Assembly (NCBI GenBank): GCA_021463465.1
Contig: JAJTYH010000002.1
Location: forward strand, 265,799-329,798
Length of the DNA stretch: 64,000 nucleotides
Direction: 5' to 3'
Source: a bacterium
Lineage (GTDB): Bacteria > Patescibacteriota > Dojkabacteria > SC72
Shown here: piece after piece, positions 48,001-54,000 of the stretch
How the letters are laid out: each line of letters starts with the position of its first letter
Numbering within the stretch: the stretch's first letter is position 1
Made by a program: the position numbers

Positions 48001-51000
48001 CGAGCCAGCATAAGTTCTTGCTTACAACACCTATAGGCAAATATCCTCAAGAAGTTTTCGACTTAGTTTTCTACGGCAAAGGGTCTAAGCCAAAGTACAC
48101 AATAATGTACACAAATCGACAAGGCTTCAAACGTACATATGACACTCGATTTGAAGGTGTTGTCCCTCAATTGCAACGCAGGTACTACGAAACTGATTCA
48201 GAATACATTAGAGAAGAGATTGATAAATACATGGTTGAGAAAGAATGTTCGCAGTGCAAAGGTAAAAGACTTAAACCATATTCCTTAGCAGTCACAGTGG
48301 GAGAAAAGAATATCGACTCGATTGTAAACACTCAGATTGAAGAGCTATACCATTTCTTTGAAACATTGAAACTTAAAGGTAACTCTGCAGAGATTGCTAA
48401 ACCTGTGCTCAAAGAGATTGTTAGTAGATTGAGGTTTCTACATAATGTTGGTTTGACCTACCTCACTCTATCTCGCAGAGCTGGAACTCTTTCTGGTGGA
48501 GAATCGCAACGTATCCGTCTTGCATCACAAATAGGCACGGGCCTTACAGGGGTTCTTTATGTGCTTGATGAACCTTCAATTGGTTTGCACCCCAAAGATG
48601 TTTCTAAACTTATTACCTCACTTGAAGAGCTACGAGACCTAGGTAATTCCGTTGTCGTGGTAGAACATGATCTCGAAACTATCCATAAAGCCGACTGGCT
48701 TATTGATGTAGGCCCAGGCGCCGGCGTGCATGGAGGTAACATTGAAGCTGAGGGAAGTCTTGATACATTCAAGCAGCAGGACTCTCTAACTGCCAAGTAC
48801 TTAAACAAAACCTTAAATGTAGGCGAAGATCTAAAGTTAAATAAATTAGCCGATTCGTCAGAGCGCCAAATTTCTCTAAAAAGCGTTACAACTCATAACT
48901 TAAAAGACGTTTCAGTCAATATACCGCTAGGTAAGTTTGTTTGTGTTACAGGGGTATCGGGTAGCGGAAAATCCTCACTTATTAATGACACCCTCTACCC
49001 TGCTTTAATGAACCGAATTATGAAAGCCAAGATGCAGGAAGGCCAATACGGAAGCCTGGAAGGCTATGAGAAGCTCGAAAAAGTCATCGGTATAGATCAA
49101 ACCCCAATAGGTCGTACCCCACGCTCTAACCCGGCCACATATACAGGAATCTTTACCGATATTAGAAATATGTTCTCACAAACGCCAGAATCTAGAAGCA
49201 GAGGTTATACCCCTTCAAGATTCAGCTTTAATGTGAAAGGTGGAAGATGCGAAAAGTGTAAGGGTGATGGACAAATCAAGATTGAAATGCAGTTTTTGCC
49301 AGACGTTTATGTTACATGCGATGAATGCCTAGGCAAAAGATACAACAAAGAAGCATTACAGATTGATTTCAAAGGTAAGAACATTGCCGATGTATTAAAT
49401 ATGACAGTAGAAGAGGCGTTAGAATTCTTCTCACCTATCCCAAGTATCAAGCGAAGACTTCAAGTATTGCAAGAAGTAGGTCTTGAATATATTAAGCTCG
49501 GACAATCAGCTACCACACTTTCTGGTGGTGAATCACAAAGAATCAAGCTTTCTAAAGAACTATCCCGACATTCTAGAGGAAATACTTTATATATCCTCGA
49601 CGAACCTACCACTGGGTTACACTTCCATGACGTTGATAAGCTTCTGCATATCTTGAAGATGTTAGTTGAAAAAGGCAGTAGCGTAATAGTAATAGAACAT
49701 AACACTGATATTATTCGATTTGCTGACTGGATTATCGACTTAGGGCCTGAAGGCGGAGACAAAGGCGGTGAGATAATAGCAGAAGGAGATTTGAAAAGTA
49801 TAAAGGAAAACAACAAAAGTGAGACAGGCAAATATATCTAAGCACCTTGCTTAACAACCGCAATAGCCTCATTAAAGTGTTTCTCCCATCCCTCAAAGTA
49901 TTTCAACCACGTTTCCTCTTGTGTTACACCAAACTTAGCGACAATACTACCTTCATTATTGAGTATATCCGTTGAATGAATTTCCGAATGATATTTAGGA
50001 ATCAGCCCATAGGATAAGCTTTTAATTTCATCCCGCTCTAAACCTTTCATACTAGCTAAAGAGTGGATTGTCTCTCTACTCTTTAACTCTTCCTTCGCGT
50101 GTTTAGCCATAGTTTTCTGCTCGTAGACCTGAGGAAACATATAGGACTGCAAAATTATCTTATATAACTTAGTCGGAGCCAAAATTACTCTAGTACCAAT
50201 TTCCGTCTCATGTACCAAATTGCGAATATTTGTCCCATTATTCTTAATTATCTGACTTGCCAATGTCATACCCGAAATAATTTCATTGCTGAAGCCTTTA
50301 TAATCAACTTTATCTCCCTTTACCAATGGAATATTGTAATAAACACCCTTAGACTGTGCGGACCACTTGATAACTGGCCTTAATTCAGATCCCGAAATAA
50401 TAGGCTTGAGATAACTCTTAACTGGCTTCATGCCCCCACTTAAAGCACTCATATCAAATTCTTCGTTAATTTCGACAATACCTGTACTTTTGATTCCATA
50501 ATCATCCACTTCGCCAATCTGATTTGTGAAAAGACATTCAAGGTCAAAGATTATTGGAAAAGGCATATTGATAACGACATTTTCTGCGTTGATATCAATA
50601 GCCCTCAGGGCTAAAAGTATTGAAGCCACCTGGCCTAAGTTGTAGTAATACTCTCTAAGTTCTTCATTATTTCTCGATTCCTCGTTCACCTTAATGAACT
50701 TTCGCTGGATACAGTCATTGAGAACGGAATGAGGAGGAAAAGATTCTTTTAAATGTGGAAATAAACTTGATAGGAATTTATCCAAAAAAATCGAGTAATA
50801 TGCCCTGTTCTCAAAATACACATTACTACCAGATTTATACCTCATATCATTAAATTTATGAACATCTCCCAAAATCAAAAAGTCTTCGCTACGAGTAATT
50901 TTTCGGCCGTAGATAAGACTTTCGTTTAGCTCATTAAAGAAGTTTTTTAATAAGGATTGAATATTTGAGTGCAGTTCATCCATTTCGAAGAATTTACCTT

Positions 51001-54000
51001 CATGTACAAAATCAGAAAAATTCCTGACTTTTTGCGCGTAAAAAGAAGTAACTATAGTCGGTAATAGCAAATCTTCGAGGGAGACTCCTAAAAATCTATA
51101 ATCAGGGAACTGCATCCCTTGCCGTTTCGCCCAACTAACCAGACCTTTTAGCAGAGCATCTCTCATAAATAAAGATTAATCATCATTACATGTGCCTGTT
51201 GCACAGCATGTGTAAGATTCACTTGGTCTCAAACCAAACTTCTTTAACTCCTCTACATTGGCATCAAATTCACCAACTCCGAGAACATCAACACCCATTA
51301 TCGCTATTTGATTCAACTCCATTTGTGGTTTAGATTAAATTAAATACTTCTGCTCAATAACTTCTGCCTTTAAATCTTTAAGAGCAGCGAATAAGCTTTT
51401 TTCCTTAGATATCACCTCAGCAGAAATTTTCCCAGCCCCTAAGTTCCGCAGATAATCAACTGCAAACTCAAGTAATTTTAAAGCATTTCCTTTGTTATCG
51501 TGGGAATCAAGTAAGCATAATGCCAAAATCTCAGCATTTCTACTTGTTAACATTGTATTAACAAACCCTAAGAAACTTTTTGATTCGTCTAAAAGTACAA
51601 AATACTTAAATTCACTCTTATCATCACTAATACGAGCGCTTACATGCTTGAGAATTCCATCAAAATTGGTTTTATATTTATCATAACCAAATAGTTGATT
51701 TGAAGACATAAATTTACTAACCAGAAGGTTACAGATTTCCTCAGAATGACTTACATTTGCAGTGACTACTTCCATTATAACTCCAGAAAAAATTATAACG
51801 AGAACCTACTTGAATAATGTCTCAAAACTATCTCGAAGTCAACTCGATAAGACTATTAAGATTTAAATATTTAATCTCTTCTCCAGTCCTTTTCTTAACT
51901 TCATAGCCTCCTTTTTCCAAACTCTTCTGACTTACCACAATTCTATAAGGTAGCCCTATTAAATCGGCATCGTTGAATTTCTCCCCAGCACTTGCCCCTC
52001 CCCTATCGTCCCACATCACTTCGACTCCAGCTTTTGTAAGAGTCTCATAAATCTTGAGTCCTTCTTCCTGGGCGTTTTCTCCCAACGCAATCAGGTGAAC
52101 CTTATATGGAGCAACACTTTCTGGCCAAATCATTCCCTTGTCATCATGGAATTTTTCAGCTATCACTCCAAGCAATCTACTAGTTCCAATTCCATAGCTC
52201 CCCATATAAACAGGCTTACTTTTCCCATCTGCATCAACAAATTGATAGTCGACAGCATCGGTAAACTTAGTCATAAGTGGAAAAATGTTACCCACCTCAC
52301 TTGCCTTGAACGCTTCATACTCCTCAGATGTTTCAGGATATAAATCTCCTGATTTAGCCACTTTCAGGTCATGAAACTTTTTTGGTTTTTGAAGATCTCT
52401 CCCCCAGTTCACATTGGCCAAGTGATAATCGGTTCGATTCCCACCTGTTTCAAAATTTATCAACGGTTCGATCGAATCATCAATAAAAACCTCTACATCA
52501 TTTGGTAAATTCACAATTCCAGCATAACCTACCTTTGCCCCTGTAACCTTCTCTACCGTTTCGTCACTAGCTAACTTTAACTCCTTCACCCCAGCTACCT
52601 TCTTTAATTTCAATTCGTTGACATCATAATCGCCACGAACGGATGCTACCAAAATACCTTTTTCTGATTCGAAAATAAGAGTCTTTGTTGTTTGCGAAGG
52701 TTTAATTCCCATAAACTTTGAAAGTTCATCAACACCAATAATGCCCTTTCCCAGAACTTCCTCCATTGGCTTCATCTCACTATCCTGCTCCAAAGCAACA
52801 GCTTTAGATGGTGCAATTTCCTTATTAAAGCATTGGTTATTACTCTTAACACGAAAGATTAGATCCTCTCCCGTTTCCAGTCGAGTCTGGAACTCATGCG
52901 AATACTCTTCAGTGAAGTCACCCCCTGAAGCAGCTGTGTAGTAGGTTTGATCTCCCAGTCCTAAGCGATTATAAACTTGAATGTAAGCCTCTCTGGCGAC
53001 TTCGTAAAAGGCTTTCAAGTCTTCCACACTCTTATGGAATGAGTACAGATCTTTCATTCTAAATTCCCTGGTTCGTAGCAAGCCTGTTTTAGGTCTCTCT
53101 TCATTTCTGAACTTAGTTTGAATTTGATAGACAGCAAAAGGTAAATCTTTATAACTAAAGTTAAACTTCTTAGCAGTGGGGGTAATTACATCTTCATGAG
53201 TAGGATTAAGTACATACTCAGCATCATTCTTCTTCAAAGACCCTTCGTTAGCCCCAACTACCTTGAAAAGCACATCAACACTATCAAAACGGTTAGTACG
53301 CTTCCAATATTCAGTAGGCACAATAGAAGGCATTAGAAGCTCTACACCAATCTTGTCCATCTCTTCACGAACAATCTGTTCAATCTTGTGTAAAACCCTC
53401 ACCCCAAGAGGTAGAAATGTATATGCACCAGCCATCACCTGATCAATAAAGCCTCCCCTAATTAGGTATTCAACCCCTTTTGTGTCAAATTCTTTGTCTG
53501 CCTTAAGTGTCTTGCCGAACAATTTGGTGTATCGCATTGTAGTAGTATAAAAAAATAAACGCCCTTACAACAATTTAAGTTAATCCTTAAACTATTGCAA
53601 AGGCGTGTAAATCCGCGGTACCACTTTGCTTTCATCTAAATGTTTCCACTTAGATCTCGTATGCTAACTGAGTATTAGCAACTCCCTGTTTACATTAGAG
53701 GGAACTAAGAAGGTTAAGGATAATGATCCAATCCCTTCTCACTCCAGGAGTGGGACTCCTTTCAATGTGATGTAAGATATTCTAACAGTTATAGATGAAA
53801 AAGTTAAGATACAAATCCCCTGTCTTTGTCTATCAAATATCTCATATATTCAGAAACGGTCATATCATTTGAAGCAGATTCCACATTAAGATGACCTAAT
53901 TGCGACTTAGTAAGGAACATATTGAAGCGCTGATTTAATGCAGCCTTACTGTGTTTCGCCACAAATGTTTGAACTATATGGTCCAAATTATTTTCGTCAT

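Follow-up and report, generated by a model that had tools for sequence, protein, structure and literature searches.

A candidate cassette for a modified ribosomal peptide, centered on a cyclase-less DUF4135 enzyme, in Dojkabacteria and other Patescibacteria

Within a 64,000-nt stretch of a Dojkabacteria contig (JAJTYH010000002.1 of assembly GCA_021463465.1, positions 265,799–329,798; hereafter the window), three closely spaced minus-strand genes lie directly downstream of a 569-aa ProS-like gene (53537..51828, minus strand). They encode a single-domain GNAT-fold protein, a 48-aa peptide, and a 442-aa enzyme of the DUF4135 superfamily that resembles the dehydratase portion of LanM-type lanthipeptide synthetases without their cyclase domain. 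We consider it probable that this cassette is a minimal system for a peptide that is made on the ribosome and modified after translation (RiPP), comprising a precursor and an active Ser/Thr dehydratase. That assessment covers these two components only; the ring-forming and GNAT-dependent steps are less certain. It draws on gene order, conservation across loci, fold, and retention of catalytic residues, with dehydration itself argued from homology to LanM. As far as visible from the sequences retrieved, the cassette appears specific to the candidate phyla radiation (CPR)/Patescibacteria.

Conservation of the cassette and its peptide

The same arrangement—GNAT-like gene, small open reading frame (ORF), DUF4135 gene, in that order—was found at 17 distinct loci including the window, with GNAT-like proteins of 143–148 aa, small ORFs of 32–48 aa, and DUF4135 proteins of 435–452 aa. 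Intergenic distances are 0–20 nt, or the genes overlap; in the window, 12 nt separate the GNAT stop from the start of the peptide ORF and 9 nt separate the end of that ORF from the start of the DUF4135 gene. Flanking genes vary among loci and include proS/uvrA, uvrA on the opposite strand, gyrA, tsaD, sortase/folD, DHH/serS, and enolase. Three context look-ups seeded from the GNAT family alone each arrived at a gene adjoining a DUF4135 gene; at one of these, L020, the peptide ORF is uncalled by annotation yet present, and gene callers in several sources do call the small ORF. Pairwise identities of the GNAT-like and DUF4135 proteins covary (Pearson r = 0.91; 16 loci, 120 non-independent pairs). 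The cassette enzymes reach down to ~29% identity, many pairs sharing 29–41%, while the peptides keep their leader and core motifs.

Every source that names an organism belongs to a CPR lineage—Patescibacteria group, Candidatus Dojkabacteria, or Candidatus Saccharibacteria—and one relative comes from a Dojkabacteria metagenome-assembled genome with a 1.09-Mb contig, in keeping with the small-genome setting proposed in a preliminary description of this DNA. Patescibacteria have ~1-Mb genomes and are thought to have almost no secondary metabolism. Retention of a three-gene unit in such reduced genomes implies an important function, possibly in an episymbiotic lifestyle. The most divergent member examined (L024:3716-5309; 474 aa, 23% identical, Val at the position of CylM His349) is preceded by a 55-aa Thr/Cys-rich ORF ending ...GPETFATTCNCTTENTCTLAY; a VKOR-family gene lies 2 kb upstream at the same locus.

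The preliminary description gave the coordinates, the peptide sequence, the 12- and 9-nt spacings, and the position downstream of proS exactly. It called the peptide unannotated; GenBank already lists it (MCC7289673.1, between MCC7289674.1 and MCC7289672.1), and in the public record the 48-aa peptide is uninterpreted rather than unannotated. That description had also named, as its own refutation test, whether the short ORF is kept at the protein level beside DUF4135 genes in relatives, and the outcome favors it: all 17 loci retain the ORF at the same position and in the same frame, with its core sequence conserved. At each of them, a putative precursor of the lanthipeptide type, with a leader followed by a Ser/Thr/Cys core, stands directly upstream of or overlaps the DUF4135 gene.

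Aligned peptides share the leader motif given in Table 1, then a short linker, then the core, which at times carries 1–3 extra residues. In a 10-sequence alignment, leader residues G15 and E25 never vary and E18 and L26 hardly do; the remainder of the N-terminal part has diverged. Within the core, C-A-x-G-T is invariant in a 10-locus alignment; across 14 loci, Cys and Ala are each present in 13/14 (the exceptions being L015, CF, and L014, G), and the Gly and following Thr in 14/14. The central Cys shifts by one position in some peptides. The window core ends ...PSESYTCCATGTCNDD, and other cores end ...NSETTTCCATGTCS, ...AETTTACATGTCS, ...VETTKDCATGTCS, ...AETTKCFATGTCS, ...GETSQCCASGTKD, and ...STSQCCASGTD. 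Every peptide read keeps at least two Cys and at least four Ser/Thr, which are the prerequisites for (methyl)lanthionine. The leader of one subgroup ends ...E-L-x-x-[MI]-G-G, resembling double-glycine leaders; the other subgroups lack this ending.

Invariant core residues are encoded by differing synonymous codons (Gly by GGC/GGA/GGT/GGG, Thr by ACA/ACC/ACT), which indicates selection on the protein. Whole-ORF dN/dS has a median of ~0.5 with dS saturated and 23/91 pairs unusable, and column-wise variation of core codons was used instead for that reason. Rfam returned no match in the peptide region at E ≤ 1, and together with the protein-level conservation this led us to reject a non-coding or structured RNA at this position.

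Core spacing is compatible with two small rings of the i-to-i+3 type, [S/T]-x-x-C and T-G-T-C; in size, T-G-T-C resembles nisin ring B. Three loci end in Lys or Asp instead of the terminal Cys: CCASGTKD (L007:5732-5860), CCASGTK (L009:592-711), and CCASGTD (L013:357-497). In all three, the preceding Thr is replaced by Ser and there are two adjacent central Cys. At the His349 position of the accompanying enzyme, these three loci have Tyr, and every ...GTC locus with a GNAT partner has Asn; in this small sample, the covariation may reflect substrate–enzyme coevolution. An S...K pairing would, speculatively, permit a lysinoalanine bridge of the kind known in cinnamycin. Lys occurs at core column 40 in 4/14 aligned peptides and elsewhere only as the terminal residue of two loci.

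No relative was found on viral contigs, and a phage origin was rejected on that basis. Seven exact TCCATGTC-coding matches in viral contigs have no leader-like sequence upstream and were set aside as chance.

The DUF4135 enzyme and the GNAT-fold protein

The 442-aa protein matches Pfam DUF4135 with E = 1.5e-21 (77.5 bits against a curated cut-off of 29), its nearest solved structures by sequence are LicM2 (6ST5) and CylM (5DZT), and a confident predicted model has the lipid-kinase-like LanM dehydratase fold. Sequence and fold both bear out the homology to DUF4135/LanM dehydratases recognized earlier. Against the LanM model TIGR03897, the protein scores 80.7 bits with a cut-off of 304 and matches only model positions 213–487 of 932. 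Lacking the fused cyclase and scoring below the curated cut-off, it belongs to the DUF4135 superfamily but is not a LanM by family definition.

To compare lengths, we aligned 56 near-full-length relatives from the same clade of short proteins with 50 full-length LanMs. Ahead of the GDxH P-loop there are 103 residues in the short clade vs. 207 in LanMs; the kinase cores are of nearly equal size; past the equivalent of CylM R506 there are 121 vs. 540. The short proteins therefore lack the whole cyclase domain (~420 residues) and ~100 N-terminal residues, and DUF4135 is the sole Pfam domain in 56/56. A cyclase hidden Markov model (HMM), built from the C-terminal 400 residues of 48 LanMs and recovering LanMs as a control, found nothing in a six-frame translation of the window (best E = 0.39), in agreement with the cyclase absence reported earlier for this locus. 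Over 141 kb of cassette flanks, the same model found nothing beyond one marginal 13.5-bit match, a 162-aa ORF of L001 without a Pfam family, taken as noise. In Pfam scans of 40 other window ORFs, no ABC/C39 exporter, protease, or YcaO appeared; all that came up were housekeeping genes plus an ATP-grasp cluster that is unrelated.

Among 5.8 billion proteins, word-indexed searching returned only three relatives of 451–452 aa with DUF4135 as the only domain; the 56-sequence profile, used with word-indexed protein search, contributed one further member usable for context (P0067). When 1.84 billion cluster representatives were searched exhaustively with a profile, 69 proteins came up at E ≤ 1e-30, the full-length ones being ~425–477 aa and the shorter ones apparently fragments. 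The short clade comprises ~70 clusters at 50% identity scoring above 130 bits, followed at ~100 bits by a mixture of 470–550-aa proteins and full-length LanMs. By sequence comparison, these ~450-aa DUF4135 proteins form a clade separate from the LanMs. A second cyclase-less DUF4135 set, absent from the window, was seen in the same search (P0073–P0150; ~470–650 aa; 26 of the top 150 representatives). It keeps the Lys274 and His349 equivalents and has ~122 residues after the R506 equivalent; some of its members may be gene fragments, and otherwise it would be another unexplored group of stand-alone LanM-type dehydratases.

In CylM, residues K274, D347, H349, N352, and D364 serve phosphorylation and D252, H254, R506, and T512 phosphate elimination (PMC4550811). 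We surveyed the equivalent positions, taken from a 132-sequence alignment, in the 56 clade representatives and the 50 LanMs. The equivalents of D252, H254, and R506 (D101, H103, and R326 in the window protein) and of D347 and N352 are invariant in 56/56; the D364 equivalent is Asp in 55/56, and the T512 equivalent (T332) is Thr in 51/56 and Ser in 5/56. Seven of the nine catalytic residues are therefore invariant or nearly so. The dehydratase domains of CylM, HalM2, and NukM, when excised, are sufficient for leader-dependent dehydration, and the leader binds mainly to this domain (PMC10676384, PMC12537861).

The third gene product, described beforehand as GNAT-like, does have a GNAT fold (β1-α1-α2-β2-4-α3-β5-α4-β6). 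It belongs to a tight group of its own, 36 proteins of 110–146 aa, mostly 143–146. We also considered whether the 146-aa protein is a split-off LanM N-terminus and rejected this, given its alpha/beta GNAT fold and the lack of any sequence or fold match to LanM. Conserved positions in the family are mostly polar or aromatic: N26, R48, Y58, G70, F71, and E120 are invariant in both alignments and Y31 and K43 in one, with H10, K33, Y34, K35, H44, and K47 nearly invariant. In the predicted model, residues 30–37 form the loop between helices 8–29 and 38–50, the α1–α2 loop, which in GNATs shapes the acceptor site. A profile-to-PDB alignment places E120 at the Glu of the LLLEV motif of Coxiella RimI, which we take to be the RimI catalytic Glu. 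The conserved polar residues point to a real ligand-binding or catalytic role.

Proposed pathway and competing explanations

Under the RiPP reading, the 48-aa product would be a precursor whose N-terminal leader serves recognition and whose C-terminal core is short. The leader would dock on the 442-aa enzyme, a miniaturized LanM-type dehydratase, which would phosphorylate core Ser/Thr with ATP and eliminate the phosphate to give dehydroalanine/dehydrobutyrine. Conserved Cys might then add to the dehydro residues, forming one or two small thioether rings; this step is speculative, and without LanC the rings would close spontaneously or with the dehydratase or the GNAT-fold partner as template. 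The GNAT-fold protein, as an obligate partner, would most likely acylate a peptide amine and less likely act as a non-catalytic or cyclization subunit; its chemistry and the biological role of the product are likewise speculative. Leader removal and export would fall outside the cassette, supplied elsewhere or unneeded.

Several observations weigh against this pathway, the first group at the enzyme active site. The Lys274 equivalent is Lys in only 15/56 clade members and another residue in 41/56 (Glu119 in the window protein). The His349 equivalent, Asn in 31/56 and His in 12/56, is also replaced in the window protein; both positions are ~98% conserved among the 50 LanMs. The preliminary description had put a Phe at the Lys of the YKPR motif; the alignment puts Glu119 at CylM Lys274 and Phe118 at the preceding Tyr. 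Its more general point, that key positions differ, stands for Lys274 and His349, but the difference would count less against activity than it had feared. They are the only CylM phosphorylation-site residues whose Ala mutants retain some activity: K274A and H349A still yield product, H349A being almost fully modified after 10 h, whereas D347A and D364A are dead (PMC4550811). The short clade has a Lys/Arg of its own at position 109 (54/56; Val in 47/50 LanMs), on the strand after the P-loop and adjacent to that of the Lys274 position in the same hairpin, with additional basic residues at 188, 333, and 336. From the alignment, and by analogy, K/R109 could stand in for Lys274. WNK kinases have lost the β3 catalytic Lys and carry a Lys on a neighboring N-lobe hairpin strand; they are an unrelated family and serve as an analogy only, the relocation in the short clade being read from alignment columns. 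By simple hairpin register, K/R109 may face the opposite side from residue 119.

The second group concerns the partner and the product. A GNAT Pfam model is matched at E ≤ 0.01 by only 16/34 family members. The acetyl-CoA loop Q/R-x-x-G-x-G/A (β4-α3) was not found in the family, where this stretch is variable, lacks a conserved Gly, is three residues shorter in most members, and aligns with gaps opposite YQRKGVA of RimI; nor does the family alignment contain an equivalent of the RimI-type Tyr (EFYKK motif). Such an atypical cofactor loop would still be compatible with acyl-CoA use, by comparison with NpuN, in which the GNAT domain without a clear P-loop consensus is the one modeled to bind peptide (PMC13060382). 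No GNAT gene adjoins the divergent L024 enzyme; since a peptide is present there all the same, the pairing of enzyme and peptide would be the more ancient part, with the GNAT as a constant companion in the main subclade. Replacement of the terminal Cys by Lys/Asp in three loci means that a fixed two-ring topology is not universal. Finally, no protease, transporter, or immunity gene occurs in any cassette or in the window, which is unusual for a secreted bacteriocin.

In one alternative, the peptide is modified without becoming a lanthipeptide: phosphorylated only, or dehydrated without rings as in dehydrazoles, with the Cys used for metal binding, disulfide formation, or GNAT acylation. A precedent exists in CcaM, a divergent DUF4135 enzyme that yields eight dehydro residues and no lanthionine (PMC10676384), and the lack of a cyclase here, the remodeled active site shown by the loss of Lys274/His349, and the non-universal terminal Cys all fit such a product. 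The clade-wide conservation of the elimination residues nevertheless counts against a pure kinase. Free thiols beside dehydro residues in a short, flexible peptide would be expected to add spontaneously, and no peptide has dropped below the Cys and Ser/Thr minimum given above. We regard this outcome as unlikely.

A split class II lanthipeptide system, in which the DUF4135 protein dehydrates, an unlinked LanC-type cyclase encoded elsewhere closes the rings, and the GNAT tailors the product, seems rather improbable. Class I systems do have dehydratase and cyclase as separate proteins, and the LanC search covered the 64-kb window, part of a contig at least 332 kb long, plus ~141 kb of flanks; a LanC could lie elsewhere in the cassette-bearing genomes, which would also count against the cyclase-free route proposed here. 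Set against this are the empty window scan, the single marginal match in the flanks, and the behavior of the three-gene unit, which shifts between unrelated contexts without a cyclase and whose enzyme has DUF4135 as its only Pfam domain throughout.

We find it very unlikely that the cassette is not a RiPP system at all but a regulatory or toxin–antitoxin-like module (GNAT toxin, antidote peptide, kinase) or a non-catalytic LanM-like effector such as CA_C0082. It does stand among housekeeping genes, often near aminoacyl-tRNA synthetase genes, and carries no genes for export or immunity; there are also GNAT toxins that have small partners. Non-catalytic LanM-like proteins are known too, but those of the CA_C0082 type are reported to lack the conserved catalytic residues (PMC10301443), whereas seven of nine are kept here. 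PADLOC returned no match, and a known defense or toxin–antitoxin system was rejected accordingly; nearness to synthetase genes, considered as a functional clue, was dropped as inconsistent across loci. The leader/core architecture and the conserved Ser/Thr/Cys-rich C-terminus are moreover typical of lanthipeptide precursors. A 48-codon ORF that arose by chance in the spacer between the only two real genes, those of the enzymes, would suit its shortness, its lack of an obvious Shine–Dalgarno sequence, and its lack of a Pfam or NCBIfam family match, but this reading is effectively refuted by the retention of position, frame, and core in 17 loci and by the synonymous changes at invariant Gly/Thr.

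The RiPP reading can be extended into a larger proposal, which as a whole we hold to be a long shot: a new class of cross-linked peptide made by a mini-LanM/GNAT complex without LanC. In it, the GNAT-fold protein may be a leader-binding or ring-closing subunit rather than an acetyltransferase, and the product may be thioether-bridged, with lysinoalanine bridges as well in the CCASGTK variants. The short DUF4135 clade could be the unfused ancestral LanM dehydratase, and the peptide might act in the episymbiont–host relationship as a signal or weapon peculiar to CPR bacteria.

Locus layout and relation to known systems

Cassette features are collected in Table 1. The candidate promoter has 9/12 matches to consensus by a consensus scan; sigma-70-like sites in the region are not more numerous than in shuffles, and the site is therefore listed as a candidate only. 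At the other end, the stop of the DUF4135 gene (−) overlaps by 4 nt with that of a convergent 941-aa UvrA-like gene (+) at 49838-49841, leaving no space for a terminator between them.

Table 1. Positions of the cassette genes and of putative elements within the window
Feature	Position	Strand	Remarks
146-aa single-domain GNAT-fold protein	51335..51775	-	First cassette gene; GenBank MCC7289674.1, 'GNAT family N-acetyltransferase'
48-codon precursor peptide gene (putative), product MELNQIAIMGVDVLGVGEFDANVEELKKFGLRPSESYTCCATGTCNDD	51176..51322	-	GenBank MCC7289673.1, 'hypothetical protein IT417_00245'
442-aa stand-alone DUF4135 enzyme (LanM-dehydratase-type, lipid-kinase-like), without cyclase domain	49838..51166	-	GenBank MCC7289672.1, 'DUF4135 domain-containing protein'
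Putative leader, residues 1-31, motif G-[LVF]-x-E-[LF]-x5-E-[LI]	51230..51322	-	Approximate, inferred boundary
Putative core RPSESYTCCATGTCNDD, motif [E/D]-[S/T]-[S/T]-x-x-C-A-[T/S]-G-T-[C/K/D]	51179..51229	-	From peptide alignments
Candidate cassette promoter, sigma-70-like TTGACT-17-CATTAT	51814..51842	-	At the end of proS, ~40 nt upstream of the GNAT start

Other features of the window were recorded in passing. A long hairpin of 20 pairs with a T-run after it (53560-53606, −) lies ~20 nt upstream of the proS start, a position at which an attenuator or leader could be expected; Rfam gave no family there at gathering score, T-box included. A cluster at 33298-40125 encodes 7TM_transglut (PF14402), ATPgrasp_ST (PF14397, E = 5.7e-67), and three more RimK-like ATP-grasp proteins on the plus strand, with a putative MATCAP-like carboxypeptidase (PF08014) coming next on the minus strand. 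The cluster has the look of a ligase system for peptides or amino acids, and a MATCAP gene also lies near the cassette in L001. An unusual fusion at 42777-44282 (−) joins a YbaK-like aminoacyl-tRNA editing domain (PF04073, E = 6e-13), at the N-terminus, to a Trp/Tyr-type tRNA synthetase of class I (PF00579); L001 has this PF04073–PF00579 architecture too. Ribosomal protein S2 at 16443-17540 (−) has a C-terminal extension matching the RNA polymerase alpha C-terminal domain (PF03118) and a helix-hairpin-helix (PF14520). ARAGORN called 10 tRNA genes, including two tRNA-Trp(CCA) at 28065-28139 (+) and 42606-42679 (−); Rfam at gathering threshold gives nine and misses tRNA-Pro(CGG) at 55505-55578.

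In the open-access literature, we found no paper linking DUF4135 to Patescibacteria and none on a cassette of cyclase-less DUF4135 enzyme, GNAT, and peptide. The preliminary claim that this combination is not a described lanthipeptide class holds to that extent, but the trio of LanM, GNAT, and precursor is itself known, with a full-length LanM, from npu (PMC13060382). Mining for lanthipeptides has started from the LanC cyclase domain (PMC7268733), and DUF4135 proteins below 500 aa have been excluded from mining (PMC10676384); either practice systematically misses a cyclase-less ~450-aa family. At 442 aa, the window enzyme would be the smallest natural dehydratase of the LanM type and, having a confident model, is attractive for structural work and peptide engineering. 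Its clade is a natural experiment on the dispensability of Lys274/His349, and the cassette lends itself to asking by what route thioether rings arise without a cyclase, if they do.

Relative to canonical LanMs (CylM, LicM2), which have a cyclase domain and conserve Lys274/His349, the short clade has no cyclase, an N-terminus ~100 residues shorter, relaxation at both of these positions, and the new Lys/Arg at 109. The npu/nostolysamide and selidamide systems follow the same three-part logic of precursor, DUF4135-type enzyme, and GNAT, and the NpuN domain modeled to bind peptide likewise lacks a clear acetyl-CoA P-loop consensus (PMC13060382). NpuM, however, is a full-length LanM with its cyclase, and NpuN is a tandem GNAT that fatty-acylates Lys1, whereas the cassette has a single 146-aa GNAT and no conserved core Lys; the NpuA leader has 78 residues, against 32–48 for the whole precursor here; and most npu-related clusters encode an ABC transporter, which the cassette does not (PMC13060382). 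The features that mark selidamides and nostolysamides—a full-length LanM, a tandem GNAT, a long NHLP/Nif11-type leader, and a Lys/Orn acceptor—are not those of the cassette.

CcaM (LanMbC, dehydrazoles), another divergent DUF4135 enzyme, serves as a dehydratase that forms no lanthionine and has no zinc-dependent cyclase. It is ~1015 aa long and needs a fused class III-type cyclase domain, which the 442-aa protein does not have; it is also leader-independent, acts on azole-containing cores, and always occurs with YcaO (PMC10676384). No YcaO was found among called genes with Pfam matches around any cassette, nor among the scanned window genes. The clostridial CA_C0082-type Agr effectors are LanM-family proteins that, like the enzymes described here, occur without the remaining lanthipeptide machinery; they are reported to lack the conserved catalytic residues and the zinc-binding motif and to lie downstream of agr operons (PMC10301443). 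The CPR proteins differ from them in being 442–477 aa long, in keeping the catalytic residues, and in always having a precursor-like peptide of their own.

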